The notes: generated by a model not told the origin, from the letters alone. 64,000 nucleotides of DNA from an uncultured Planctomycetota bacterium (GCA_963845755.1 CAWJTV010000034.1:480001-544000); one strand, 5' to 3'; shown: positions 41,452 through 60,975, numbered from the stretch's first letter. Made by a program: numbers and translations.

Positions 41452-41481
41452 GGTGCTTCGGTGTCGTCGGACGAATGGCAC
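41452..41481 (+). other. putative recombination core site S1
   Basis: GGTGCTTCGGT-GTCGTCGG-ACGAATGGCAC. Confidence 0.65.
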
Positions 41482-41695
41482 TAGCTTAAGCGTAACACTT
41501 TATGCCATTTGAGCTTAAGTGCGGATCTCCAGACATATTTTCAACGATTGTAGATATTCGCTTGTAATATTGATAGAGAGTTTAGCCTCAAATCAAGCCA
41601 CATGGACCCAACCTCATATCCTCCTGAATACTATTAATGGGCAAACCGTCGCGACACAACTCGTTTTCTGAAAACGAGTTACGCTTAAGCTAGTG
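41471..41695. repeat. non-coding linker L1 (233 bp including 44134-44141); right arm interrupted by intron copy 1
   Basis: terminal inverted repeat ACGAATGGCACTAGCTTAAGCGTAAC; AT-rich core homologous to L2. Confidence 0.8.
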
Positions 41696-44133
41696 ATGAG
41701 GTAGGCGGCCAGCCCCTTGATCTCAAGGGAATCCAACCGCCCCCTCCCGAACCGGACAGGCACGTTTTCGTGCATCCGGCTCTCCAGACACAGGATCTAC
41801 ATTTGTGTCACGGTCCAACCCGGTATGCCAGGTCCGCCAGTCGGAGGCCATCATATTCTCCTCGGTGGATCTTACGGTGGCACTCTCGGCAGACGGGCAC
41901 TTGCTTCCGGTTCTGGAGTCGCATCAGCCAGGCAAACCCACCGACAGGTTTGCCCTCCATCTTTCGGATGTGACGGACGTGGTGCATCTGCACCCCGACC
42001 GTTGTTTCGCAGATGATGCATGGGTGGTCCAGGCGGGACCTTGTCCGGAATCGGACGTGCATCTCCAGTGGGTCGGTTTGATCTCTTCCCGTTAGAAATG
42101 CCGTGGGGTTCCGGGTCCAGTCGGAGTTGGCTTTGAAGAAGGTGTTCCGTTCCTTCCCCTCGCCGTCTTTCCAGTTGAATTGCAGAGTGCGTCCGTGTTC
42201 GCAGAGGAGCTGCTTAACGGGCTTCTGCAACTTGTGGGCTAAGGTCTTCGCAAGTGACAAATGCAGGATGTACTGGATACGGCTCATGGAGGCGAAGTTG
42301 TCAGCAAACCTGTAGTAGTTCAACAGCCCCCAATTGGTGCTGTTGAACAGTTCGATGATGTGCTTCACCTCCAGGCAGACCCACGCTGTCTTGGATCGGG
42401 CGATGCCCTCACCGTCACAGAAGCCCTTCTGGTGAAGACGCTTGACCAGTTTCCTGATCGGCGCTCGCATCAGCGGGCTCCACCCCGTACACCGGCGCCG
42501 GTAGTGCCGCCGTTGGTTGTGGCAGTGGGTAACCTTGGGCTGTGGGTTGACGGCCCCCACCTGAAGCCGCGTCCCGAGAAAGAAGGCCTCCTCGGTCTTG
42601 GCGTGAGTGACGACCGTCTTTTCCTGGCTGAGTTGCAGTTTCAGCCTGTCCCATAGGAACGCCTGAATCTCGTCCTTGATCTGTTCGGCCAGGGACCTCG
42701 GCCCCGTGACGCCGACGATCCAATCGTCTGCATATCTGATGTATTTGACTCTGACGAAGCCAGGGTCAAACGTGTCCATCGACGGGAGAGATCGCATCTG
42801 TTTCGTCAAAGCGCGAATCTCCGGCGTCATGATCCCACCTGACCGTTTCAACGCTCGCTGCCTGCGATAGTTGATCCGGTGATACTCGGGGCTGTCCTTC
42901 CGCTTGCTGCCCTTCTCGTACTTCTGCTGTAGTCCCTCGACGAAGAGGTCGAGTTCGTGCAGGTAGATGTTGGCGAGGATAGGGCTGGCCACGCTCCCCT
43001 GCGGGGTCCCGATAAACGAGGCCCCCGGTTCCTTCCTCCATAGGTAGCCTGCCCGGAGTGCTTTCCAGATCAGGCCGATGAAGCGTTCGTCCGAGATCCT
43101 CTTCCGGATCAGGGAAACCAGGACGTGGTGATCGATCTCGTCGAAGCAGGATTTTATATCCCCTTCGATGATCCACGTCACACCAGACCACTTGGTCCTG
43201 AACTCATGCAGGGCCGTGTGAGTCCCTCGACCAGGCCGAAAACCATGGCTACAGTCGCTAAAGGTAGGCCCTTTCGGACTGTCGTAGATCGCTTCGAGGA
43301 TCACATGGATGACCTCTTGGACGATCTTGTCCCTTGGGGATGAGATGCCGAGAGGCCGCATCTTGCCATTTGCCTTGGGAATGTATTCCCGCCGCGAAGG
43401 CTTGAATTGGAAACCCTCGTCTCGCAGGGTCGCCACGATGTCGTCGATGGCATCCATGGAGAACCCATCGAGAGTCATCCCGTCGGTGCCAGGAGTCAAG
43501 TTCCCGGGAGCGGATTTGATTTTCTCATACGCGACGATGTAGAGATCCGTCTTGTAGAGGAGTCGATACAGATCCGCGTTGACCCAGTTGAGGTCCGTGT
43601 TGCACTTCCGCAGTGCTTCAAGCCTGAGTAGGGCTGAATGACTCATCCGAGTCACCCCGTTCTTGGTGAAGCCCTGTGTCCTGTCCCCCTTGGGCCGATG
43701 CCTACTACGGGGACTCTGTCGCCTTGGGCATTGCTGCCGTTAGGCGATCCCGTGGTTGTCGGTCAGGTCCGGTCCACGTTGAGGGCCTCCGTTCATCCCT
43801 TGCCCCTGCTCATTGCAGGGTGTGTCCTGCCGGAAGATCACGGAGGTGAATGGCATGCCCCCGTGAGACAGGAATCCGGGTTTCAGCGTCATTCCCGGCG
43901 GTGATCGAGCACACCCACTGGGACTGGAGTTCAAGCAATCCAGCCTTACCCATGCGTGGCCTAACTTGCGAACGTCTCTCGGCCCTTTGACGCTGGGCCT
44001 CACGTCGCTTCTTCCGCATGCTGTTGTCCCCTCGATCCTTTCGGTTGAAGGTCAGCGGAACGTTTGACCCGCCTTCTTCCAGCGGGGTCGGGGCACTCCC
44101 GACAAGACCAGACAAACCTTAGCCACGGCGCAC
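41696..44133 (-). mobile_element. group IIA (ML class, LtrB-like) intron, copy 1, 2,438 nt
   Basis: 5' GTGCG at 44133-44129; domain V/VI and terminal ...CCTACCTCAT at 41696; removal restores GAATGG|CACTAG. Confidence 0.93.
41808..43646 (-). CDS. ltrA: intron-encoded reverse transcriptase/maturase with HNH endonuclease (LtrA-like)
   Basis: RPLGI, GTPQGSVASPILANIYL, YIRYADD, C-terminal CIIC..HH..CRECH; ATG at 43646 (ORF track uses GTG 43655). Confidence 0.93.
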   Translation of the reverse strand: MSHSALLRLEALRKCNTDLNWVNADLYRLLYKTDLYIVAYEKIKSAPGNLTPGTDGMTLDGFSMDAIDDIVATLRDEGFQFKPSRREYIPKANGKMRPLGISSPRDKIVQEVIHVILEAIYDSPKGPTFSDCSHGFRPGRGTHTALHEFRTKWSGVTWIIEGDIKSCFDEIDHHVLVSLIRKRISDERFIGLIWKALRAGYLWRKEPGASFIGTPQGSVASPILANIYLHELDLFVEGLQQKYEKGSKRKDSPEYHRINYRRQRALKRSGGIMTPEIRALTKQMRSLPSMDTFDPGFVRVKYIRYADDWIVGVTGPRSLAEQIKDEIQAFLWDRLKLQLSQEKTVVTHAKTEEAFFLGTRLQVGAVNPQPKVTHCHNQRRHYRRRCTGWSPLMRAPIRKLVKRLHQKGFCDGEGIARSKTAWVCLEVKHIIELFNSTNWGLLNYYRFADNFASMSRIQYILHLSLAKTLAHKLQKPVKQLLCEHGRTLQFNWKDGEGKERNTFFKANSDWTRNPTAFLTGRDQTDPLEMHVRFRTRSRLDHPCIICETTVGVQMHHVRHIRKMEGKPVGGFAWLMRLQNRKQVPVCRECHRKIHRGEYDGLRLADLAYRVGP

Positions 44134-44159
44134 CCATTCGTCGATCACACCGAGGCAAG
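44134..44159 (-). other. putative recombination core site S2 (A-arm split by intron)
   Basis: (GTG|)CCATTCGT-CGATCAC-ACCGAGGCAAG. Confidence 0.6.
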
Positions 44160-44380
44160 CAAGCAGTAGAGGGATGACGATCTGCCTGGCTCCGCGCGGC
44201 GGTTGCGGCGCGGGGGCGTTCCGTTCACGATTGACCCGCCAGGTCTTCGGTCTCGCGTCCATCCTCGGATCCTCTCCTGTGGTAAGAAGAAGGATGACGA
44301 AGAGGCCGCCAGCCGGATACCCGGTCCTTCAATACCTGCAATTCGGTAGGATCAGGAGAATCGCAAGGGAGCCTCGCATC

Positions 44381-45163
44381 ATGAGCATCTTCGACCGATT
44401 CAAATTGACGGGAAAGCGTCTCTTCATCACGGGAGGTAGTCGCGGCTTGGGACGGGAGATGGCACTCGCGATCGCCGAGGCCGGCGCCGACGTGATCCTC
44501 GTTGGCCGCGACCCGGCAGGTTTGGAGAAGGCAGCCGGCGACATCCGCGCCCTGGGCCGCCAATGCTGGACCCTCGCGGCGGACGTCGGAAAGCCGGCCG
44601 AATGCGAAGAGGCGTGCCGGTTGGCTCTGGATCATCACGGCCCGATCGACATTCTGATCAACAACGTGGGCGGCCGGCACGAGAACATCCCCACGGAAGC
44701 GATGTCGCTCGACAAATGGCGCGAGCTGATCGACCTGAACCTCACCAGCTGCATGCAATGTACGAAATGGCTCGGCGCGGCGATGATCGAGCGCGGCGGG
44801 GGCGGGCGAATCATTAACATCGCTTCGATCAACGCGCTCGTGGCGGGGCGTGGCATCACGGGCCGGCACTACGAGACAGCGAAGGCGGCGATGCTTCAGT
44901 TCACCCGCGCGGTCGCGGCCGACTGGGCGGTGCACAAGATCACGGTAAACGCCATCCTGCCGGGCGGCTTCATGACAGAGGCGAACCAGCGCTGGTCCGA
45001 AATCCATCCGGAGGTGATCGAGCAGTTCCGCGCCAATATCCCGCTGGGCGATTTCGGCCAGCCGGAGGATCTTGGGCCGCTCGCGGTGTACCTGGCCAGC
45101 GACGCCTCGCGCTACATGACCGGGGCAGCCCTGGTGATCGACGGCGGGTACACGTTGTGGTAG
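44381..45163 (+). CDS. SDR family NAD(P)-dependent oxidoreductase (cargo 1)
   Basis: TGGSRGLG, DILINNVG, INIAS, YETAK (YxxxK), VIDGG. Confidence 0.92.
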   Translation: MSIFDRFKLTGKRLFITGGSRGLGREMALAIAEAGADVILVGRDPAGLEKAAGDIRALGRQCWTLAADVGKPAECEEACRLALDHHGPIDILINNVGGRHENIPTEAMSLDKWRELIDLNLTSCMQCTKWLGAAMIERGGGGRIINIASINALVAGRGITGRHYETAKAAMLQFTRAVAADWAVHKITVNAILPGGFMTEANQRWSEIHPEVIEQFRANIPLGDFGQPEDLGPLAVYLASDASRYMTGAALVIDGGYTLW

Positions 45164-45215
45164 GAAGACTGACGCGGGAATGTGATCACGCCAGTCTCCT
45201 TGTCGAGGACTTGAA

Positions 45216-46035
45216 ATGAACGGACCCAGAACGGTCAGATCGTTCGTGTCAAGTAGCCCGGAGTATCATCGGGCATTCCAAGCGTTCCTGGCCCACACTG
45301 ACCAGAAGGACAAGGCCAGGGAGTGGATAAGGCACGAGGTCGACGGGCTCGCGAATCGGTCGGTCATGATTGACGCGGGCGCCGGCAGCGGGCGGCTCAC
45401 TTCGTGGCTCACTCCGCTGTTCGGGACTGTGATCGCCATCGAACCGAACCCCTCCATGGAGTCGGAGCTTCGGATCGCTTGCCCAGACGCGGTGGTGATC
45501 GCCGCCACGATCGCCTCGGCCTCACCGCCGACGGCAGGGGACTTCGTGCTGTGCTCGCACGTGTTCTATCACATCCCCCGGTCGCAGTGGGAAGCGACCT
45601 TGCTGCACTTGATGGGCTGGCTAGCTCCCGGGGGCGTTCTCGCCGTCGCGTTGCAGAACCCCCGTGCTGACTGCATGCGCATGGTCAACCATTTCCTCGG
45701 GGGCCGCCTCGATCTGAGCGAGCTTTGCCCGATGGCGAACGCAGAGGATGGTGAGTATGAGGCACGGCTGGAGACCGTTCCTGCTCACATTCGCGCGCCC
45801 GACCTCGGGACAGCCTGCGAGATCGCCGAATTCTTCCTGAATGACCTGCCCATGCCCGCGCCACCGAGGTGGGAGGACCTGGAGCATTACGTTGAACGAG
45901 CATTTCAAGCAGGCCGAAGGTGGTTACCAGCTCTCGTGTCATCAAGACTTCTTACGAGTCTCCAGATCGATTGGATCGCCTCTATCGGCGATAAGAGCGG
46001 ACCGTCCGCACGGGGCGCGGCGGTCGTCCCCTTGA
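45216..46035 (+). CDS. class I SAM-dependent methyltransferase (cargo 1), frameshift near 45900
   Basis: MIDAGAGSG, IAIEPN, DFVLCSHVFYHI, LAPGG. Confidence 0.82.
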
Positions 46036-46199
46036 TCTGGGGGCGAGAGCTTCTGCGCCAAACGGTGCAGGGACTGGACCACCGTTCGGCTCGTCTCGGG
46101 AGGCCGACGGTTGATTGGCGGCTGGATGGACCGGACTATCTGGGTCTGGGACGCGACGCCGCTGCCGGAATAGCAGCGAGGGTGGGGACACTGTTCGCA

Positions 46200-46400
46200 G
46201 TCGTCCTCAATCGGCCGGCTCCGCCCGTGCAGACCTCACCTTCCTCGCGATGACGCGGCAGCGGTTCGGTCGGCCGCAAGAGGCCCGAGAGGGCCTCGAC
46301 CGCCTCCGGGAGAACCTGGAGGACCCAGCCCGCGCTAGATGGCGAGGCCCCGGGCTTCTTGCGCGAGGCCCGAGCGGTCTTTGCCGCTTCACGCCGTTGG
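46200..46400 (+). pseudogene. remnant resembling the TPR-like C-terminus of planctomycete Ser/Thr kinases
   Basis: DLTFLAMTRQRFGRPQEAREGLDRLRE; no intact start. Confidence 0.4.
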
Positions 46401-46481
46401 CCTGCGAGCCACGCTGCTGAACGATCAGCCCGGCGTGCCGCGTCGCCGTGATCTCGCCGCCGTGGAGCGCCTTCCTTTTGC

Positions 46482-46746
46482 GCGCGTCGGTCCGACGACA
46501 CGAATGGCACTAGCCTAAGCGTAAGTCGCTGATACTAAGTGACTTGTGTCTGTGACGGTCGGGGTTCTTGCAGAGAATACCCGACTATGATCATGATTTG
46601 ACGATGGGCTAGCCGGGAAACCAAGGCCTCAGATGGAGCCCCTAGGAATCCGGTCCATGGATCAAGGAAGTCCATTGTTTGCAAGTTCAATTTCTGCCAG
46701 AGGTTGCGCTTATGCTAGTGCCATTCGTGTCGTCGGACCGACGCGC
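46482..46746. repeat. linker L3 (46500-46728) with core sites S3 and S4 forming a 33-bp perfect inverted repeat
   Basis: GCGCGTCGGT-CCGACGAC-ACGAATGGCACTAGC at 46482-46514 and its exact reverse complement at 46714-46746. Confidence 0.85.
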
Positions 46747-46841
46747 AGAGAGCCGTTCCACAAGACGCCGGTGAATCCAGAACTAACCGCGTCCCTGTTC
46801 CCCTCCCTTGGATACAAATTCAAGAGGACTCGGTTTCACGC

Positions 46842-47389
46842 TCAAGCGAATCCCTTGTCTTTGAGCCACTTCTCAATCACAGATGGAAGGGTGGTGCCCG
46901 GGTTTCTCGTGTCGAAGGGCTTGTAGAGTTTGCCGTTCAGATCGGCTTGAAGGGTCTTGAGAGTCTTGTCCTTCAGCAGTAAGACCGGCTTGTTGAGGGC
47001 CATCATGTAGCCGACCTCTAGGCCGACATTGGGATTGAACTCCTCTTGCTCGATCCGATCGAAGATGGCGATGCCGAAGCCGCAGCCGTGCATGTAGGTC
47101 TTGATATTGGAGAAGGTGTCGTCGTCGTATTCCTTGTGATCGGCCCGCATGGCGGCAATTCCATGCTTTGCGGTCGTCTCCTGGATCACACGGACGATGT
47201 CACTGTGAGCGTCGGTCTCGGTGAACCGCATCATATGAAGGCGGCCTTGCGTGGGTCGGGATGCTCAGCCTGGAACGCCTGGAGGCTTTCTTGGATATCG
47301 GGCGGCAAAGATGGAAGGCTTGGCTTCGGCGGTAATGCTTTGCTTCTTCGTCCAGATGGGCGAGTCGAGACTGAACCTGGATCAGGCAT
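46842..47389 (-). CDS. nucleoside-deoxyribosyltransferase/TIR-like domain protein (cargo 2), frameshift near 47234; start uncertain
   Basis: AFI|MMRF, RAD, GIAIFD, NPNVGLEVGYMMALNKPVLLL, LQADL. Confidence 0.7.
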
Positions 47390-47565
47390 CTCAACGAGCG
47401 CAGCACTCGAATAGTTCGCCAGGCGCCGCCCCTTTCCTTCGTCCCACACGCATTCAAGATTGCTAAACATTGAGTCTACTTGCGCAGTATGGGTAAGCTG
47501 GCCCCCCCCTCAGACTACGCAGTCCGCTTGGAATATTAGCAATATCCCTCGGCAAAGACGAGGAA

Positions 47566-48660
47566 TCAGCTCGAGCCGAGTCCCTCATACTCGGGGGATA
47601 GCCGGTAACTCCGCGACTTCCTGGCCGGGTCAACCACGAGCACGAACCCGCCGCTCACCCATGAAGAGAGGATGTTCCGGGCCGTCCTCTGGGAGACGCC
47701 GAAGAGGCCCTCGACGTCGCGGCTGGTGATGACGACCGAGCGGCGGAAGAGCTCCAGGGCCCGGCGCCGGCGGGGGTCGAGGCGACGCAGCGCGGCCGAG
47801 TCATCCCTCATGCCCCGGTCGGCGGCCTCCCGGGCGCGGCGGCGGACGCTCTCGAAGCTGTCGGCCATGCCCGCGCAGAAGTATTCGACCCACGCCGTGA
47901 TGTCCGCCTCGGCACGGCCCTGATAGTAATTGTGCGACGGCCCGACCGCCAATGCCCGGTAGTAGGCCGACAGGTCTCTGGCGTAGTATTCTTCCAGCGA
48001 ATAGAGCCCCTTCAGGTCGTACCCGCCCCGGTGGAGGATCAGGGTCGTCAGGAGCCTCGCCGTGCGGCCGTTGCCGTCGTAGTAGGGGTGGATCGTGGCG
48101 AACTGGTAGTGGGCGATCCCGGCGCGGATCGGGCACGGGACGCCCTCGTGCTCGCTGCGCCGGAGCCAGTCGACGAGCTCCTCCATGAGCCGGGGGACAT
48201 CCGATGCCTCCGGGGGCATGTAGACGATCCGACGGCTGCCGGCGTCGCGGATCACGTTCTGCCCGCCCCGGTATGGGGTGGGCTTCTTCACCGCCTTGCC
48301 GCTGGCCATCACGAGGGCGTGAAGGGTTCGGACCTGGAGGTCCGTCACGTCCCCTCCCTGGGCCGCGAATCGTTCGAGCCGCTCGATCGCCGCGTAGTAG
48401 CCGAGGACCTCGGCCTCGTCTCGCTCCCGGCCCGGGAAATGCCTCCCCTGCTCGATCAACGAGGAGACCTCCTCCCGAGCGAGGCGGTTGCCCTCGATCA
48501 TCGTGGAGTAGTGGGTGGAGAAGAGCCGCGCGGTCTCGCGGAGGCCGGCGAGCACGGAGGACGTGATCGGCAGGTCCTCCACGGCCTGCCGGGCCGCCTC
48601 GATCCTCATGAGGTGGGTCGCGGTGCGGGGCGTGATCCGGTAGTTGGGCTCGAACGGCAT
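47566..48660 (-). CDS. Fic family protein with C-terminal HTH (cargo 2)
   Basis: STMIEGN; HPYYDGNGRTAR Fic motif. Confidence 0.92.
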   Translation of the reverse strand: MPFEPNYRITPRTATHLMRIEAARQAVEDLPITSSVLAGLRETARLFSTHYSTMIEGNRLAREEVSSLIEQGRHFPGRERDEAEVLGYYAAIERLERFAAQGGDVTDLQVRTLHALVMASGKAVKKPTPYRGGQNVIRDAGSRRIVYMPPEASDVPRLMEELVDWLRRSEHEGVPCPIRAGIAHYQFATIHPYYDGNGRTARLLTTLILHRGGYDLKGLYSLEEYYARDLSAYYRALAVGPSHNYYQGRAEADITAWVEYFCAGMADSFESVRRRAREAADRGMRDDSAALRRLDPRRRRALELFRRSVVITSRDVEGLFGVSQRTARNILSSWVSGGFVLVVDPARKSRSYRLSPEYEGLGSS

Positions 48661-48979
48661 TCGGCGGCACTTTCTCGGTCGGTTTCCTTGCCGTTATTGT
48701 GCCGTTAAAGTGCCGATAAATCAAGCGATCGGTGTGGGTCGAGGTAGGCACTCTGCTCACAACCTGGGACGCGTATCTGGATTGCGGCGTCGCCGGCGAG
48801 GCGGCGGGGGGTGAACGCCGACATTGCGATTAGTCCGACGCTTGGGCGGTCTAGACAAGCGCATGTCCCGCCGGGCCGGCTCGATGGCCGCCCCGCCCCG
48901 GGCCCGGCCCGGCCGATCGCCGGACGGAGCCGGTTCGTCCAACAGACGGGGCGGAGTCGGGCCGGAGCCGGCGACGTTG

Positions 48980-49005
48980 CTTGCTTCGGTGGGATCGACG
49001 AATGG
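48980..49005 (+). other. putative recombination core site S5 (A-arm split by intron)
   Basis: CTTGCTTCGGT-GGGATCG-ACGAATGG(|CAC). Confidence 0.65.
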
Positions 49006-51443
49006 GTGCGCCGTGGCTAAGGTTTGTCTGGTCTTGTCGGGAGTGCCCCGACCCCGCTGGAAGAAGGCGGGTCAAACGTTCCGCTGACCTTCAACCGAAA
49101 GGATCGAGGGGACAACAGCATGCGGAAGAAGCGACGTGAGGCCCAGCGTCAAAGGGCCGAGAGACGTTCGCAAGTTAGGCCACGCATGGGTAAGGCTGGA
49201 TTGCTTGAACTCCAGTCCCAGTGGGTGTGCCCGATCACCGCCGGGAATGACGCTGAAACCCGGATTCCTGTCTCACGGGGGCATGCCATTCACCTCCGTG
49301 ATCTTCCGGCAGGACACACCCTGCAATGAGCAGGGGCAAGGGATGAACGGAGGCCCTCAACGTGGACCGGACCTGACCGACAACCACGGGATCGCCTAAC
49401 GGCAGCAATGCCCAAGGCGACAGAGTCCCCGTAGTAGGCATCGGCCCAAGGGGGACAGGACACAGGGCTTCACCAAGAAAGGGGTGACTCGGATGAGTCA
49501 TTCAGCCCTACTCAGGCTTGAAGCACTGCGGAAGTGCAACACGGACCTCAACTGGGTCAACGCGGATCTGTATCGACTCCTCTACAAGACGGATCTCTAC
49601 ATCGTCGCGTATGAGAAAATCAAATCCGCTCCCGGGAACTTGACTCCTGGCACCGACGGGATGACTCTCGATGGGTTCTCCATGGATGCCATCGACGACA
49701 TCGTGGCGACCCTGCGAGACGAGGGTTTCCAATTCAAGCCTTCGCGGCGGGAATACATTCCCAAGGCAAATGGCAAGATGCGGCCTCTCGGCATCTCATC
49801 CCCAAGGGACAAGATCGTCCAAGAGGTCATCCATGTGATCCTCGAAGCGATCTACGACAGTCCGAAAGGGCCTACCTTTAGCGACTGTAGCCATGGTTTT
49901 CGGCCTGGTCGAGGGACTCACACGGCCCTGCATGAGTTCAGGACCAAGTGGTCTGGTGTGACGTGGATCATCGAAGGGGATATAAAATCCTGCTTCGACG
50001 AGATCGATCACCACGTCCTGGTTTCCCTGATCCGGAAGAGGATCTCGGACGAACGCTTCATCGGCCTGATCTGGAAAGCACTCCGGGCAGGCTACCTATG
50101 GAGGAAGGAACCGGGGGCCTCGTTTATCGGGACCCCGCAGGGGAGCGTGGCCAGCCCTATCCTCGCCAACATCTACCTGCACGAACTCGACCTCTTCGTC
50201 GAGGGACTACAGCAGAAGTACGAGAAGGGCAGCAAGCGGAAGGACAGCCCCGAGTATCACCGGATCAACTATCGCAGGCAGCGAGCGTTGAAACGGTCAG
50301 GTGGGATCATGACGCCGGAGATTCGCGCTTTGACGAAACAGATGCGATCTCTCCCGTCGATGGACACGTTTGACCCTGGCTTCGTCAGAGTCAAATACAT
50401 CAGATATGCAGACGATTGGATCGTCGGCGTCACGGGGCCGAGGTCCCTGGCCGAACAGATCAAGGACGAGATTCAGGCGTTCCTATGGGACAGGCTGAAA
50501 CTGCAACTCAGCCAGGAAAAGACGGTCGTCACTCACGCCAAGACCGAGGAGGCCTTCTTTCTCGGGACGCGGCTTCAGGTGGGGGCCGTCAACCCACAGC
50601 CCAAGGTTACCCACTGCCACAACCAACGGCGGCACTACCGGCGCCGGTGTACGGGGTGGAGCCCGCTGATGCGAGCGCCGATCAGGAAACTGGTCAAGCG
50701 TCTTCACCAGAAGGGCTTCTGTGACGGTGAGGGCATCGCCCGATCCAAGACAGCGTGGGTCTGCCTGGAGGTGAAGCACATCATCGAACTGTTCAACAGC
50801 ACCAATTGGGGGCTGTTGAACTACTACAGGTTTGCTGACAACTTCGCCTCCATGAGCCGTATCCAGTACATCCTGCATTTGTCACTTGCGAAGACCTTAG
50901 CCCACAAGTTGCAGAAGCCCGTTAAGCAGCTCCTCTGCGAACACGGACGCACTCTGCAATTCAACTGGAAAGACGGCGAGGGGAAGGAACGGAACACCTT
51001 CTTCAAAGCCAACTCCGACTGGACCCGGAACCCCACGGCATTTCTAACGGGAAGAGATCAAACCGACCCACTGGAGATGCACGTCCGATTCCGGACAAGG
51101 TCCCGCCTGGACCACCCATGCATCATCTGCGAAACAACGGTCGGGGTGCAGATGCACCACGTCCGTCACATCCGAAAGATGGAGGGCAAACCTGTCGGTG
51201 GGTTTGCCTGGCTGATGCGACTCCAGAACCGGAAGCAAGTGCCCGTCTGCCGAGAGTGCCACCGTAAGATCCACCGAGGAGAATATGATGGCCTCCGACT
51301 GGCGGACCTGGCATACCGGGTTGGACCGTGACACAAATGTAGATCCTGTGTCTGGAGAGCCGGATGCACGAAAACGTGCCTGTCCGGTTCGGGAGGGGGC
51401 GGTTGGATTCCCTTGAGATCAAGGGGCTGGCCGCCTACCTCAT
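49006..51443 (+). mobile_element. group IIA (ML class, LtrB-like) intron, copy 2, 2,438 nt
   Basis: GTGCG at 49006; EBS2 near 49231-49238; delta/EBS1 TGCCATTC 49284-49291; domain V 51357-51390 (GAGCCGGATGCACGAAAACGTGCCTGTCCGGTTC); ends CCTACCTCAT at 51443. Confidence 0.93.
49493..51331 (+). CDS. ltrA: intron-encoded reverse transcriptase/maturase with HNH endonuclease (LtrA-like); translation identical to copy 1
   Basis: same motifs as copy 1; AAGGGGTG ribosome-binding site before ATG 49493. Confidence 0.93.
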   Translation: MSHSALLRLEALRKCNTDLNWVNADLYRLLYKTDLYIVAYEKIKSAPGNLTPGTDGMTLDGFSMDAIDDIVATLRDEGFQFKPSRREYIPKANGKMRPLGISSPRDKIVQEVIHVILEAIYDSPKGPTFSDCSHGFRPGRGTHTALHEFRTKWSGVTWIIEGDIKSCFDEIDHHVLVSLIRKRISDERFIGLIWKALRAGYLWRKEPGASFIGTPQGSVASPILANIYLHELDLFVEGLQQKYEKGSKRKDSPEYHRINYRRQRALKRSGGIMTPEIRALTKQMRSLPSMDTFDPGFVRVKYIRYADDWIVGVTGPRSLAEQIKDEIQAFLWDRLKLQLSQEKTVVTHAKTEEAFFLGTRLQVGAVNPQPKVTHCHNQRRHYRRRCTGWSPLMRAPIRKLVKRLHQKGFCDGEGIARSKTAWVCLEVKHIIELFNSTNWGLLNYYRFADNFASMSRIQYILHLSLAKTLAHKLQKPVKQLLCEHGRTLQFNWKDGEGKERNTFFKANSDWTRNPTAFLTGRDQTDPLEMHVRFRTRSRLDHPCIICETTVGVQMHHVRHIRKMEGKPVGGFAWLMRLQNRKQVPVCRECHRKIHRGEYDGLRLADLAYRVGP

Positions 51444-51668
51444 CACTAGCTTAAGCGTAACAGCTTATGCCATTGGAGTTTAGGCACGGGTCGTCAGGCA
51501 TATTTTCAGCGATTGCAAATATTCGCTTGTAATATTGATAGAGGATTTGGCCTCAATTCAAGCCACATGGACCCAGCCTTATATCCTCCTGAGTACTACT
51601 GATGGGATAAACATTGCGACGCAACTCATTTTCTAAAAAAGAGTTACGCTTAAGCTAGTGCCATTCGT
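51444..51668. repeat. non-coding linker L2 (233 bp including 48998-49005); left arm interrupted by intron copy 2
   Basis: same terminal inverted repeat and length as L1, with a diverged but alignable core. Confidence 0.8.
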
Positions 51669-51686
51669 GGGATCGACCGAAGCACC
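51658..51686 (-). other. putative recombination core site S6
   Basis: GTGCCATTCGT-GGGATCG-ACCGAAGCACC. Confidence 0.65.
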
Positions 51687-51928: not shown

Positions 51929-53325
51929 CATACGAAACTGGTTAAGCCGCAATCCTTGGTGCGAACAGCAGTTGTCGCGTACTGGGGCGTTTCTTCCGTC
52001 GGCCACGCCGGGGCAAACGACTCAAGCGGACTCGCAGTTTCTCCAACACCCGCCGCAACCGCGCTGGGTCGCTCAGCGCCGCGGCGATTTGCAATGCCAG
52101 CCGCTTCACCCGCCGAGCCGCCCGGACCAGGCTGATCCCACACAGGGGCCCTCCGCGCAGCAGCGTCCCCCAGTGCTGCACCAGCATCCCCAACAGCTTG
52201 GCATACCTCTCGCACAACACCCGCTGGCCCCGCCGACCCCGCGTCCGGTCCACACCCCCTCCCGATTTCCACGCCTTATACAACAACTCCACCTGCCAGC
52301 GGACACGATAAAGCACGCAGATTTCTTCAATTGTCAACGTGCCCGCCGGCAAATCGGTGATCAGCACCGTCCCCTGGCACATCACGCGCTGGCGATCACT
52401 CAGCGTCTTCCCCTTCTTCCGCAGCTCCTTTCGCAGCCGACGCAATCGGATCTCGGCCACCTCCCGGGGCACCCGCAGGGCCACCAACCGACAGCCCAAG
52501 GTCGCCTTGGTCCCCAGGACGACCGTAGTGTCGATCCGACCCTCCGTTTGCCGATCCAACCACGCGCTGATATTGACCCCACCCGGCTCACCGGCTCGCA
52601 CTTTCAACTGCGCCGGGACGCGGCTGATAAAGTGAATCCCCTTCTGCTGATCGGCGGCCAGTCGTTCCAGGTCGAAAAAGCCCAGGTCGCACAACCGCAG
52701 GCTGTTGGCAGGTAAGGGCGCCAGCTCCTCGGCCAGGGTTCGCTCAGAATCGCGCGCCGGTGCCGGTGGCTGAATCTCCAAGCGGCCGGTGGTCACATCC
52801 CACCGCGTCAAGAGCTTCCATCCCGCTTGACCGCCTTGGGGATCAGAGCCACCACAGCCGGGGAAGGATCCGGCCAATTCGGCCGGCAACCCGACGATGG
52901 TGACGTCCTCGACGGAAACGGTCGCGAAGCGGCGCAACAGCGGAATCATCTCGGGCCGGGCCGCGAACAGCAGGTTCAACGCCTTCTCGAGCACCCGACG
53001 CAAACAGTCCGCGGCGCGGGCGTTGAAGCGTTCGTTGAAAGCCGCCTCGCTGATGTCGAGGTCTTCAATGATCTCCTCAATGGTGGCGTCGGGATTCTCC
53101 AGCCAATGAAAGACCAGGGCCTGGACGAATCGGGACCCGGTGAGCTTGCGCTGGCGCCGAATCATGCCGGAATCCTTGGCAGCCTCATCGGCGTCGGTGG
53201 TGAAGAGGGCTTGCAAGGCATCAGCCAGTTGATCGATCGTGATGGTCATCCGGTACTCCTCCGGTGCGGAAATACTGATCAAATGTATTGTACCAGAGGA
53301 GTTACTTCTTAACCAGTTTCTCATG
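51929..53325 (-). mobile_element. IS4-family insertion sequence (~1.4 kb)
   Basis: terminal inverted repeats CATACGAAACTGGTTAAG / CATGAGAAACTGGTTAAG (16 of 18 match). Confidence 0.85.
51942..53249 (-). CDS. IS4 family transposase
   Basis: RRQRKL, DLGFFD, YRVRWQVELLYKAWKS (YREK motif). Confidence 0.9.
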   Translation of the reverse strand: MTITIDQLADALQALFTTDADEAAKDSGMIRRQRKLTGSRFVQALVFHWLENPDATIEEIIEDLDISEAAFNERFNARAADCLRRVLEKALNLLFAARPEMIPLLRRFATVSVEDVTIVGLPAELAGSFPGCGGSDPQGGQAGWKLLTRWDVTTGRLEIQPPAPARDSERTLAEELAPLPANSLRLCDLGFFDLERLAADQQKGIHFISRVPAQLKVRAGEPGGVNISAWLDRQTEGRIDTTVVLGTKATLGCRLVALRVPREVAEIRLRRLRKELRKKGKTLSDRQRVMCQGTVLITDLPAGTLTIEEICVLYRVRWQVELLYKAWKSGGGVDRTRGRRGQRVLCERYAKLLGMLVQHWGTLLRGGPLCGISLVRAARRVKRLALQIAAALSDPARLRRVLEKLRVRLSRLPRRGRRKKRPSTRQLLFAPRIAA

Positions 53326-53383
53326 GGGCGTCAGCCCCCTGTCCGGTGAGCGACGGACCTCCAAGACAGGGGGCTGACGCCCC
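53325..53383. repeat. GC-rich hairpin (19-bp stem) between two IS elements
   Basis: GGGGCGTCAGCCCCCTGTC...GACAGGGGGCTGACGCCCC. Confidence 0.75.
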
Positions 53384-54765
53384 TGTCACCCGACAGTAGG
53401 TTTTGCCGCGAATCCCGACAAAAAGGTTTTGCCGCCTCGTGGCGGGGGGTAGTCTGTGATGGTCCGATCCTGCCAACTCCTGCGAGGGTCACTATGCCCG
53501 CTCCACTCCCGCCGACAACCCGGCGCCTCATCTTGCTACGATCCCGTCGCGGCCAGACCGCGGCGGCCATCGCGGACGCCCTGCATCTCTGCCCCCGCAC
53601 GGTCCGGCACCTGCTCCAGCGGGCTCGCGACCCGGCGAGCCCTCAGGGGACCGCTTATCGGCCCGGTCCGGGGCGGCCCGCCGACGACCACCCGCTCCGA
53701 GCCCAGGCCCTGGCCCTGCGACAGCAGCATCCGACCTGGGGAGCGGGCTACATCCGCGTCCGCCTGGCCACCGAGGCCGACCCGGCGACGGTGCCTAGCG
53801 AGCGCGCACGTTGCGGCGCTGGTTCCGCCGCCAGCGGCACCCGCCTGCGGCGGGGGGACGGCGGTCGCCGTCGGCCGCCGACCGTGCCATCGCCCCGCAT
53901 GACATCTGGCAGAGGGACGCCGCGGAGCAACTCCGCACGGCCGACGGCCAGGGCGCTGCTGGCTGCGGCTGGTGGATGAATATACGGGGGCCTTCCTGGG
54001 CACCACGGTTTTCCCCCCACTACTACTGGGCCCACGTCCCCGAGGCCGAGGTGCAGCGGCACTTGCACCGCGCCTTCGAGCGGTGGGGGCTGCCGCGCCG
54101 CATGCGGGTCGATAACGGCAAGCCGTGGGGGTCCTGGAGCGACCTGCCCCCCGCGCTGGCGTTGTGGCTGATCGGCCTGGGGGTCGGCGTGATCTGGAAC
54201 GACCCGCGGCGGCCGCAACAGAACGGCGTGGTGGAGCGGTCGCAGGGGACGGCCAAGCGGTGGGCGGAGCCGCACGCCTGCGGCAACCCGGCGGAGCTGC
54301 AGGCCCGCCTGGACGCCGACGACCGGTTGCAGCGGGAGCGGTATCCCGTCGCCGGGGGACACAGCCGTTGGGAGCTGTTCCCGGGTCTGGCGCACAGCGG
54401 CCGCGCCTACCGCGAGGCGGACGAGGCCGGCGCGTGGTGCCGGGGGCGGGTGCGCGACCACCTAGCGGAGTGGGCCGTGCCGCGCCGGGTGGACAGCCAG
54501 GGAAAGGTGTCGATCTATAACAGGAATATCTATGTAGGAGTGTTATATGCGGGCCGGGACGTCTGGGTCCAGTTCGACCCGGGGCACGGCGAGTGGCTGA
54601 TCAACGACGGCGGGGGCCAGCAGCTGCGGGCCCGGCCGGCCCCCGAGATCGACGCGGAGTCGATCCGCGGGTTGCGATTGTCGGGACGGAAGTAGGGACC
54701 GCCGGGTGTCCATGCGGCAAAACCTTTATGTCGGGATTCGCGGCAAAACCTACTGTCGGGTGACA
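53384..54765 (+). mobile_element. IS481-like insertion sequence (1,382 bp)
   Basis: ~52-bp terminal inverted repeats TGTCACCCGACAGTAGGTTTTGCCGCGAATCCCGACA...; GCCCC duplication at 53379-53383 and 54766-54770. Confidence 0.88.
53494..54695 (+). CDS. HTH + integrase-core (DDE) transposase, frameshifted
   Basis: N-terminal HTH, HPTWGA, WQRD, RVDNGKPWG, PQQNGVVERS. Confidence 0.8.
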
Positions 54766-55626
54766 GCCCCCCGCTCGCCCGGACCGGCCCTTCTGGGACA
54801 GACTCTTATTGCGGGCTTCCCAAATCACCTCTGTGTTTCGGTTCTCCCCGTACGGGGATGACCTGTCCGTTTCATCAGTGAATCACCGTTTACGGAGTAC
54901 GCCGCAGACCAGACGGCTCGGCTGCATGGCGGTTAAAGACTGCGCGGTCGCTTGGCTTCGTTTTGCAGAATTCAGGATGTGCTGCGCGGCGTTTTGGCTC
55001 GTTTCGCGGGTTCGGCATCCGGCAGGACGAGGATTCTTGGCTTCGTTTCAGCGATTCCGCGCGGCACGCTTCGCATTCCAGTGCGATCTCTCGTTGAAGT
55101 ACAAGAATATCGTGCGTGGATTAATAGTTCCTTGCACCCAAGATCTCAAGTGAGAATATTCCTTCATGACTGAGTGAACCCAAAGCGAGCGTGCTCGCAT
55201 TTTACCCGAATGGAGGCACCGATCGCATCGAACCGTCCTGGCAGACGACTTCCCGGGACTCAAAGCGGAAAACCTCGACCCGAGACGGGTGGTCGGTTGC
55301 ACGCACCCTGCGAATCCGCGGGGGATCCTCCTGACCAATCTCGGCCCATTAGCGAACCTCATATTCTTCAGGATGCCGCAACTTGGAAAAAACGTTAATG
55401 CATTTCGGGCGAATTGGGCTCGTTTATTGATTCAAGTCCCTACCTGACAAGGAAATAAAATCTTCGAAAACTTTTTCGGGCCGGTGGACTGATTCCTGTG
55501 CGCTGCCGGTCGGCCAACGCGCGTGCTCGCGTCCGATCCGGCCAACCCGCGTCACGATCGTGGCGATCACGTCCGATCGATCCGGCCTGCTCATCGATAT
55601 CGATGAGACTCGGGATCCCTCGTTCG

Positions 55627-60799: not shown

Positions 60800-60975
60800 T
60801 TGCGCGCGTCAGTCGGATCGACGAATGACAGTAGACTAGGCGCAAGTGTTTTCTGATAAATGACTTGGACCTGTACAGGGCCGGTCGTTTAGGGGAAAAA
60901 TCTTAGTCTGTTCACATTATGATTAATTGGCTGGCCGGGAAACATAGGGCTCCAGATGGAGACCCCGAGAATCAA
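60800..60975 (+). repeat. degenerate core site S7 and partial L3-type linker
   Basis: TTGCGCGCGTCAGT-CGGATCG-ACGAATGACAGTAG; shares GACTTG, GCCGGGAAAC and CAGATGGAG with L3; no right arm found. Confidence 0.7.

Follow-up and report, generated by a model that had tools for sequence, protein, structure and literature searches.

Target choice by group II introns is set by the pairing of EBS2 with IBS2. Among the described systems, the targets of Ll.LtrB-type introns are recognized by EBS1, EBS2, and delta (PMC3898094, PMC4424553). Guide-based targeting, divergence of the EBS elements, ORF-less copies, and insertion in mobile elements have all been described (PMC2882425, PMC3898094), as has the insertion of IS4-family elements into REPs (PMC1525189). 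The intron analyzed here shares the RT, maturase, and HNH domains of Ll.LtrB and its protein LtrA (class ML, group IIA, Lactococcus lactis); Ll.LtrB sits in a relaxase gene (PMC6003770), whereas the present intron occupies a noncoding, multicopy seam between two different repeats. The TeI3/TeI4 introns of Thermosynechococcus elongatus resemble it in forming families through diverged EBS, in having ORF-less members moved in trans, in their conserved insertion sites within other mobile elements, and in forming twintrons, but those are CL/IIB1 introns (PMC2882425), and here the EBS variants stay on one palindrome family. For E.c.I4, found in IS629/IS911 transposase genes, a mobile element likewise supplies many homing sites that are incompletely occupied; however, E.c.I4 inserts inside the transposase gene (PMC3522654), whereas the intron studied here targets the terminal repeat and spans the element boundary. 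Group IIC introns, which follow terminators or attC hairpins, also insert by or within a family of DNA hairpins, but they lack EBS2 and read the hairpin as structure (PMC3898094), whereas the present intron appears to read the loop by base pairing. On the transposon side, ISRm22 and other REP-targeting ISs show IS4-family insertion at the palindrome axis with target duplication and some mismatched repeats; ISRm22 itself is an IS4Sa element with 6-bp repeats, and the text of PMC1525189 available mentions no intron at such junctions. No published case of a palindrome loop read by EBS2, or of an IS-palindrome seam as a target, was found in open-access text without supplements; intron-database entries may exist. 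Introns at the ends of MITEs are not mentioned in the accessible part of PMC4853749. Although the targeting mechanism itself is textbook, the target described below is unusual, and so is the EBS1 switch.

The window is a 64,000-nucleotide stretch of DNA from an uncultured Planctomycetota bacterium (GCA_963845755.1 CAWJTV010000034.1:480001-544000). A preliminary description had proposed that EBS2 of an intron in the window reads a variable spacer at seven sites, S1 to S7, and thereby explains which of them are occupied. Judging from sequence comparisons, it is very probable that an LtrB-like intron retrohomes to a composite target, in which EBS1 reads the terminal repeat (TIR) of an IS4-type element or MITE and EBS2 reads the loop of the palindrome that this element entered.

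Two intron copies form inverted repeats of 2,438 nucleotides each, copy 1 on the minus strand (41696..44133, read 44133 to 41696) and copy 2 on the plus strand (49006..51443). They begin with GTGCG and end in CCTCAT, in keeping with the GUGYG start and AY end of group II introns; each scores 62 bits against RF00029 (gathering threshold, 40), placing domains V/VI at the 3′ end. Only two bases differ between them, at intron positions 226 (T/C, the first base of EBS2) and 475. Both encode the same 615-amino-acid protein (41808..43655, minus strand; 49484..51331, plus strand) with RVT_1, Intron_maturas2, and AI2M-like HNH matches, the last at 23.4 bits (cut-off, 23), and with the YADD of an RT-maturase ORF at residue 308; its TIGR04416 score, 252, is under the cut-off of 300. 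LtrA (5g2x) is the nearest solved relative (326 bits over the full length, E = 3.5e-96), and the remaining nine solved-structure matches score at most 113 bits. Since LtrA is by far the nearest solved relative, similarity to it points to an LtrB-like intron of class ML with structure IIA (class table in the available text of PMC4424553). The EBS1-IBS1 and EBS2-IBS2 pairings expected of class ML and group IIA are both present. A search of assembled contigs from four sequencing runs gave no trusted spliced junction or empty allele of S5.

The sites themselves had been taken for recombination sites made of two arms and a spacer. Instead, S1 to S7 are seams between IS4-type transposon ends and halves of a palindromic target, because the TIR bounds IS4 elements and the palindrome of the second arm is found intact elsewhere. 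The first of the supposed arms, GAATGGCACTAGCTTAAG, is found in the source genome in inverted pairs with a spacing of about 225 bp; on contig C47 it also delimits a 1,830-bp element whose transposase is frameshifted. TIR-bounded elements of about 1.8 kb encode an IS4 transposase; in the intact element at locus L055 it scores 202 bits against NF033592 (cut-off, 115), and its translation contains the YREK motif, YERRWDGEVDIRSIK, with the IS4 spacing Y(2)R(3)E(6)K. The TIR fits the end pattern of subgroup IS4, -AATR--------WTW, and the elements here, at about 1.75 to 2.0 kb, are larger than the 1.4 to 1.65 kb of that subgroup (PMC2266710, Table 1). Direct repeats flank 42 of 59 TIR pairs (exact 11-bp repeats at 28, exact 12-bp repeats at 14) and are lacking at 17; the duplicated target is GT, the "spacer," and AC, 11 to 12 bp in all, and subgroup IS4, which is alike in end pattern and duplication, duplicates 10 to 13 bp (PMC2266710, Table 1). 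The second arm is the stem of the palindrome GC(T/G)TCGGT-N7/8-ACCGA(A/C)GC. Intact palindromes with family-type loops number 55 among 306 loose matches, compared with 3 among 234 in the reversed-genome control. With loops of 7 to 8 nucleotides, the 55 listed palindromes show no evident unpaired GTAG or CGTC tag (criteria of PMC3733652), and by coordinate comparison none of 10 PF01797 matches lies beside one of them. Because neither the tag nor a RAYT neighbor was found, we therefore call the palindrome only REP-like. The sequence left of S1 bears out the seam: about 190 bp of it recur on contigs C10 and C29, where they end in an intact palindrome.

Of 121 family genomes, 25 contain the palindrome-TIR junction pattern, which has no match in the reversed control; it also occurs in at least 115 stretches of a genome collection, mostly labeled Planctomycetota. 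It was also seen in records labeled Chloroflexia, Burkholderiales, Pseudomonas, and Solirubrobacteraceae (L038, L044, L057, and L089), two of which, L044 and L089, encode a related transposase. A related end family, GAATG(C/G)CATTAAGTTAAGCGTAA, occurs free of palindrome arms at C5:535212, C5:820761, C11:690391, C12:183488, C25:15408, C25:140086, and C43:95240; two of its copies lie within about 2.3 kb of genes for 485-amino-acid integrases, and none of the seven holds an intron of the window type.

It could be argued that S1 to S7 nonetheless belong to a cassette array as pdif- or RIT-like sites of a tyrosine recombinase (arm-spacer-arm), which the intron parasitizes, given that cargo genes in the window lie between inverted sites of alternating orientation and that the genome has 43 PF00589 matches, trios included. 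However, no such arm was seen at the ends of recombinase loci in the nine regions inspected of the 43 matches, the arm bounds IS4 transposase genes and comes with 11- to 12-bp duplications, and the uninterrupted palindrome exists alone. The recombination-site and RIT-end reading was rejected as largely refuted and is, in our judgment, scarcely credible. The RIT-like tyrosine-recombinase trios, partly broken, are at C6:52852-55985, C6:124044-127031, and C13:261949-264354 and are unrelated to S1 to S7.

The seams, whose spacers read as the preliminary description had given them, are arranged around three MITEs. S1 (41455..41472, plus strand) is an empty half palindrome with the 12-bp target copy GTGTCGTCGGAC. 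It is followed by MITE 1 (41473..41695), which has IS4-type TIRs and shares 99% identity with uninterrupted MITEs on C2 and C47; intron copy 1 splits its right TIR after base 6, at S2 (44140..44156, minus strand), a half palindrome with the loop GTGATCG and IBS2, GATCGA, at 44146-44141. MITE 2 (46502..46726; 225 bp) has two empty ends, S3 and S4, whose loops both read CCGACGAC inward and make 1/6 pairs with EBS2. At S5 (48983..49005, plus strand), which comprises a half palindrome with the duplication GTGGGATCGAC at 48989-48999, IBS2 at 48993-48998, and IBS1 at 49000-49005, copy 2 splits the TIR of MITE 3 after base 6. Beyond copy 2, the remainder of MITE 3 (51444..51666) ends at S6 (51667..51677, plus strand), which is the second copy of the 11-bp duplication GTGGGATCGAC and is empty; read in reverse from the MITE side, its loop makes 2/6 pairs with EBS2. 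S7 (60812..60845, plus strand), also empty, joins a matching loop, CGGATCG, to a decayed TIR (GAATGA CAGTAGACTAGG), the damaged GAATGA being as previously noted.

Several features of this neighborhood were recorded in passing. Across 41461-46738, S1 and S4 share a 12-bp repeat in direct orientation, and MITE 1 and MITE 2 each lack matching repeats; the two MITEs possibly flank a composite transposon with genes for a short-chain dehydrogenase and a methyltransferase, a reading weakened by the fact that the loop common to S1 and S4 is the commonest allele, with 22 intact palindrome copies. Between MITE 2 and MITE 3 (46842-48660) are a 130-amino-acid ORF resembling nucleoside deoxyribosyltransferases (its Pfam match is below the cut-off) and a 364-amino-acid Fic-domain gene, cargo that is possibly defense related. 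The interval 51942-54766 contains another IS4-family transposase (NF033592, 168 bits) and an rve-type transposase between 53-bp inverted repeats at 53383 and 54714.

The insertion point of the intron is between TIR bases 6 and 7, and IBS1 of copy 1 (44134..44139, minus strand), GAATGG, is the first six bases of the IS4-type TIR. EBS1, CCATTC (intron nucleotides 281 to 286), together with the delta G preceding it, complements GAATGG|C; the delta-EBS1 stretch lies at 43848..43854 (minus strand) in copy 1, within a hairpin loop, and at 49285..49291 (plus strand) in copy 2. EBS2 of copy 1, TCGATC (43903..43908, minus strand; intron nucleotides 226 to 231), complements GATCGA at exon positions −13 to −8 and lies about 50 nucleotides 5′ of the EBS1 hairpin. 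Neither folding model has it paired. In the fold of the single sequence (z = −0.65, no better than shuffles), EBS2 occupies the loop of a small hairpin and EBS1 another loop, and the EBS2 stretch is likewise free in the consensus fold of 20 sister introns. In copy 2, EBS2 (49231..49236, plus strand) reads CCGATC, its first base mutated, and makes 5 pairs. The delta-delta′ pair is G-C in the window copies, T-A in the distant L135, and G-T in L134; by eye, most sister introns pair at this position, and L312, L314, and L326 do not.

A longer, 8-base pairing had been proposed. The underlying readings were confirmed: copy 1 reads TCGATCAC at 43908-43901 (minus strand), the exact complement of its own 5′ exon from −15 to −8, GTGATCGA, and copy 2 reads CCGATCAC at 49231-49238 and makes five pairs with the S5 spacer. 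When the first 480 bases of the intron are shuffled 5,000 times, 3.5% of the shuffles contain an 8-nucleotide complement of the GTGATCGA stretch. What is conserved is a hexamer pairing, TCGATC with GATCGA, amounting to 5 or 6 bp; occupied sites pair over 3 to 8 of the 8 nucleotides, with all 8 only in GTGATCG loops. Eight bases as a rule were rejected, the last ones closing a predicted hairpin and being unmatched at most occupied sites. Also discarded was the idea that the T-to-C change in copy 2 adapts it to its own spacer: the changed base faces an invariant A at −8, and position 226 is T in near-identical contigs from 3/3 DNA runs. Since all three runs read T, the change is a private mutation or an assembly error.

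Seven sites alone say little. Their occupancy does fit EBS pairing, as had been claimed, but with three matching sites in the window the chance of this pattern is 3/21 = 0.14. The proposed tabulation of spacer against occupancy was therefore read across the source genome, starting from 43 junctions; one false hit (C11:630203) was dropped, and two junctions missed by the pattern (on C28 and at C34:545758) were added, giving 14 junctions with an intron 5′ end and 30 empty ones. At least 5/6 Watson-Crick pairs to TCGATC are possible at 11/14 occupied but only 5/30 empty junctions (Fisher P = 1.3e-4), and all seven near-identical intron copies with a 5′ exon match EBS2 (the copy at C42:405297, which has no 5′ end, is outside the 14). 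The three occupied nonmatches are the C6 variant and two short fragments (C25 and C40) that have lost EBS2. The one readable copy in a spacer without GATCG, at C6:61152, is 94% identical and has a compensatory EBS2, ACCGAC, which makes 5/6 pairs with the loop GTCGTCGG, and so supports the pairing. Conversely, junctions of the reverse type, CGATCnn, are empty in 7/8 cases, the eighth having a 67-nucleotide intron fragment without EBS2, and 11/11 junctions of the CCGACGAC type are empty. Orientation matters because the "spacer" is the target duplication, which, for a MITE that has simply inserted, is read forwards at one end and reversed at the other, as at the occupied S5 and the empty S6.

The five empty matches comprise two with a damaged IBS1 (S7 and C42:136862) and three in which IBS1, IBS2, and delta′ are all perfect (C9:310723, C11:1000518, and C42:137088). 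Two intron-bearing sites have an IBS1 mismatch (C45, GATTGG; C42, GAATGC). Because three perfect sites are empty and two occupied ones are mismatched in IBS1, the emptiness of S7 needs no special excuse, although its mutated IBS1, to which it had been attributed, is real. Partial filling of target sites is common for such introns (PMC3522654, in the text available).

Could EBS1 and delta suffice, making the intron a plain parasite of IS4 ends for which EBS2 hardly matters? EBS1, delta, and the base before delta pair with 8 invariant junction bases, TGCCATTC, and some sister introns sit in mismatched loops; even so, 25/30 empty junctions lack an EBS2 match, most of them with intact IBS1, while the near-identical copies match without exception, and we regard this explanation as highly unlikely. 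EBS1 is nevertheless a gate as necessary as EBS2, because 55 intact palindromes with family-type loops exist and none holds a located 5′ end of the window-type intron. Loop identity and orientation thus license insertion rather than determine it; the preliminary description, in having them decide, was right about a strong occupancy bias and overstated it, given that 3/30 empty junctions are perfect and about 5/28 sister introns are mismatched.

The census also turned up altered copies. Those at C11:965048-967501 and C36:46509-49021 are each interrupted by roughly 2.5 kb of inserted sequence, and short duplications mark the joints. The copy at C6:61152-62500 (L001) is ORF-less, intron nucleotide 531 being joined to 2314, and a sequence that begins with GTGCG and looks like a second group II intron (twintron) breaks up its domain V; no 3′ exon was found within 2 kb. 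ORF deletions start at intron nucleotides 528 to 533, approximately, in several copies (C45:4626-5424; L142; L329; run X20), which suggests one ORF-less lineage or a deletion hot spot.

Sister introns provide a second line of evidence. A 20-base anchor search returned 46 metagenome and 6 genome loci, and, with loci from another search included, 47 rows proved to be family members. Rows lacking a 5′ exon were dropped, as were two duplicates and six rows located behind another intron; with L142 added, 33 rows, 28 of them unique, entered the pairing analysis. The 28 unique EBS2/exon pairs average 4.95/6 pairs, compared with 4.29 ± 0.15 when permuted (reached in 0/20,000 permutations), a contrast that is overstated since the sisters are related; 19/28 reach at least 5/6, and 9/28 fall under 5. 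EBS2 changes track loop changes, as in the C6 copy, in CCCGCC with GTCGGG, and in TACCGT with GTCGGT: introns reading CGATC are in (G/A)ATCGA loops in 7/8 cases, and those reading CCGnC are in GG-type loops in 16/16. There are misfits, for example L142, which combines EBS2 TCGATC with the loop GTCGTCGG, and the CGGTC readers L143, L289, L319, and L321, with only 3.5 to 4 of 6 pairs; about 5/28 sisters sit in poorly matched loops. In alignment A1 (28 of 40 rows with exons), 79.1% of cells are paired compared with 67.3% when shuffled, and two-sided changes number 29 compared with 14, relatedness inflating the contrast. The EBS2 register outscores all six slid registers (11 to 62% paired), one of its seven columns is paired in only 13/28 rows, and pairs with a two-sided change (5, compared with 4.4 in shuffles) are not above expectation. 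Together, the genome census and this covariation uphold the identification of the element as EBS2, reading the 3′ end of the "spacer."

These data also bear on whether the loop bias is set by the intron protein or by history, a founder having been copied by duplication or recombination, so that the EBS2 match would be incidental. LtrA-type proteins do recognize bases flanking the IBS (PMC3898094, in part); some junctions are duplicated with their flanks, the occupied rows C9:311649 and C42:394860 sharing the same flank and probably being one event; and there are the roughly five sisters in mismatched loops. Yet the near-identical copies represent separate insertions, because five different loops occur among them and their MITE 3′ exons differ as well, and EBS2 follows the loop base by base in copies that are mostly ORF-less and would depend on a common protein acting in trans. 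We consider the protein-or-history account unlikely and favor EBS2 pairing.

The EBS1 side varies as well. Instead of a TIR, most metagenome sisters occupy the 3′ arm of an intact palindrome (loop-AC-CGAAGC| or -CGACGCG|), with EBS1 GCTTCG or CGC(G/T)TCG; their 3′ exons continue the arm, many are ORF-less and about 640 nucleotides long, and the ORF is absent from most of those with a visible 3′ end. A small group has EBS1 (C)GCGGAG and the target CTCCGC, and in all three settings (TIR, palindrome arm, and CTCCGC) EBS1 agrees with its own exon. Both EBS1 types are found together with EBS2 CGATC and likewise with EBS2 ACCGAC. A domain I tree with the EBS loops removed requires two changes between TIR and palindrome targeting, with starred branches forcing one, its root being arbitrary and its bootstrap support unsettled. 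The distant L134 and L135 (about 67% DNA identity) have unrelated targets with matching EBS1. A protein-based search found six loci, three of them close relatives; exons could be read at two loci, both with other targets. A 15-base junction scan of the genome collection gave 120 stretches from unrelated taxa with no intron BLAST match among the loci fetched, a degenerate 27-base scan of metagenomes gave 0, and a one-mismatch 18-base scan of the 121 family genomes gave mostly chance matches. At L293, L298, L303, L305, L322, L324, and L326, an intron 3′ end abuts another intron 5′ end, reflecting either circles or introns stacked head to tail at one palindrome site; in L322, a complete ORF-less unit is flanked by the end of another intron on one side and by the palindrome arm on the other.

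Put together, the junctions show a first step in which an IS4-subgroup transposon or a 100- to 230-bp MITE enters the palindrome loop, duplicating GT-loop-AC (11 to 12 bp). Then, on the strength of complementarity and covariation, EBS1 CCATTC would pair with TIR bases 1 to 6 and the delta G with TIR base 7, while EBS2 TCGATC would pair with the final five bases of the loop and the adjoining A. A junction would be a good target only if its loop, read towards the TIR, ended in (G/A)ATCG, so that a MITE that has simply inserted would qualify at no more than one of its ends. The intron-encoded RT/HNH protein would presumably complete homing, with matching sites licensed and not necessarily filled, and the intron-split TIR would probably be dead as a transposon end. 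In the pattern seen, sisters keep the EBS2 register on the same loop, EBS2 varying with the loop allele; those with EBS1 GCTTCG or CGC(G/T)TCG enter the 3′ arm of the empty palindrome, and ORF-less ones would need protein in trans.

The genome thus offers a natural experiment, with about 44 near-identical junctions whose main difference is IBS2, alongside sisters in which EBS1 and EBS2 have changed in a compensatory way. This makes testable both the retargeting of group II introns by guide mutation and the neutralization of a transposon by an intron that splits its end, and it brings to light an LtrA-like, possibly programmable intron from GC-rich soil bacteria, with relatives mostly labeled Planctomycetota. 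It is quite possible, though we would stop short of calling it probable, that the intron family is a dedicated parasite of a palindrome family that IS4 also uses, with two guides evolving as separate modules: EBS2 follows the loop, while EBS1 switches back and forth between a reading for the empty hairpin and one for the hairpin occupied by IS4 or a MITE. The form that reads the TIR would then detect prior transposition and, in splitting the terminal repeat, immobilize the transposon, and a few coding copies would serve a swarm of ORF-less, differently programmed ones. If so, the family would amount to a natural targetron library and to a three-way contest over one DNA hairpin.
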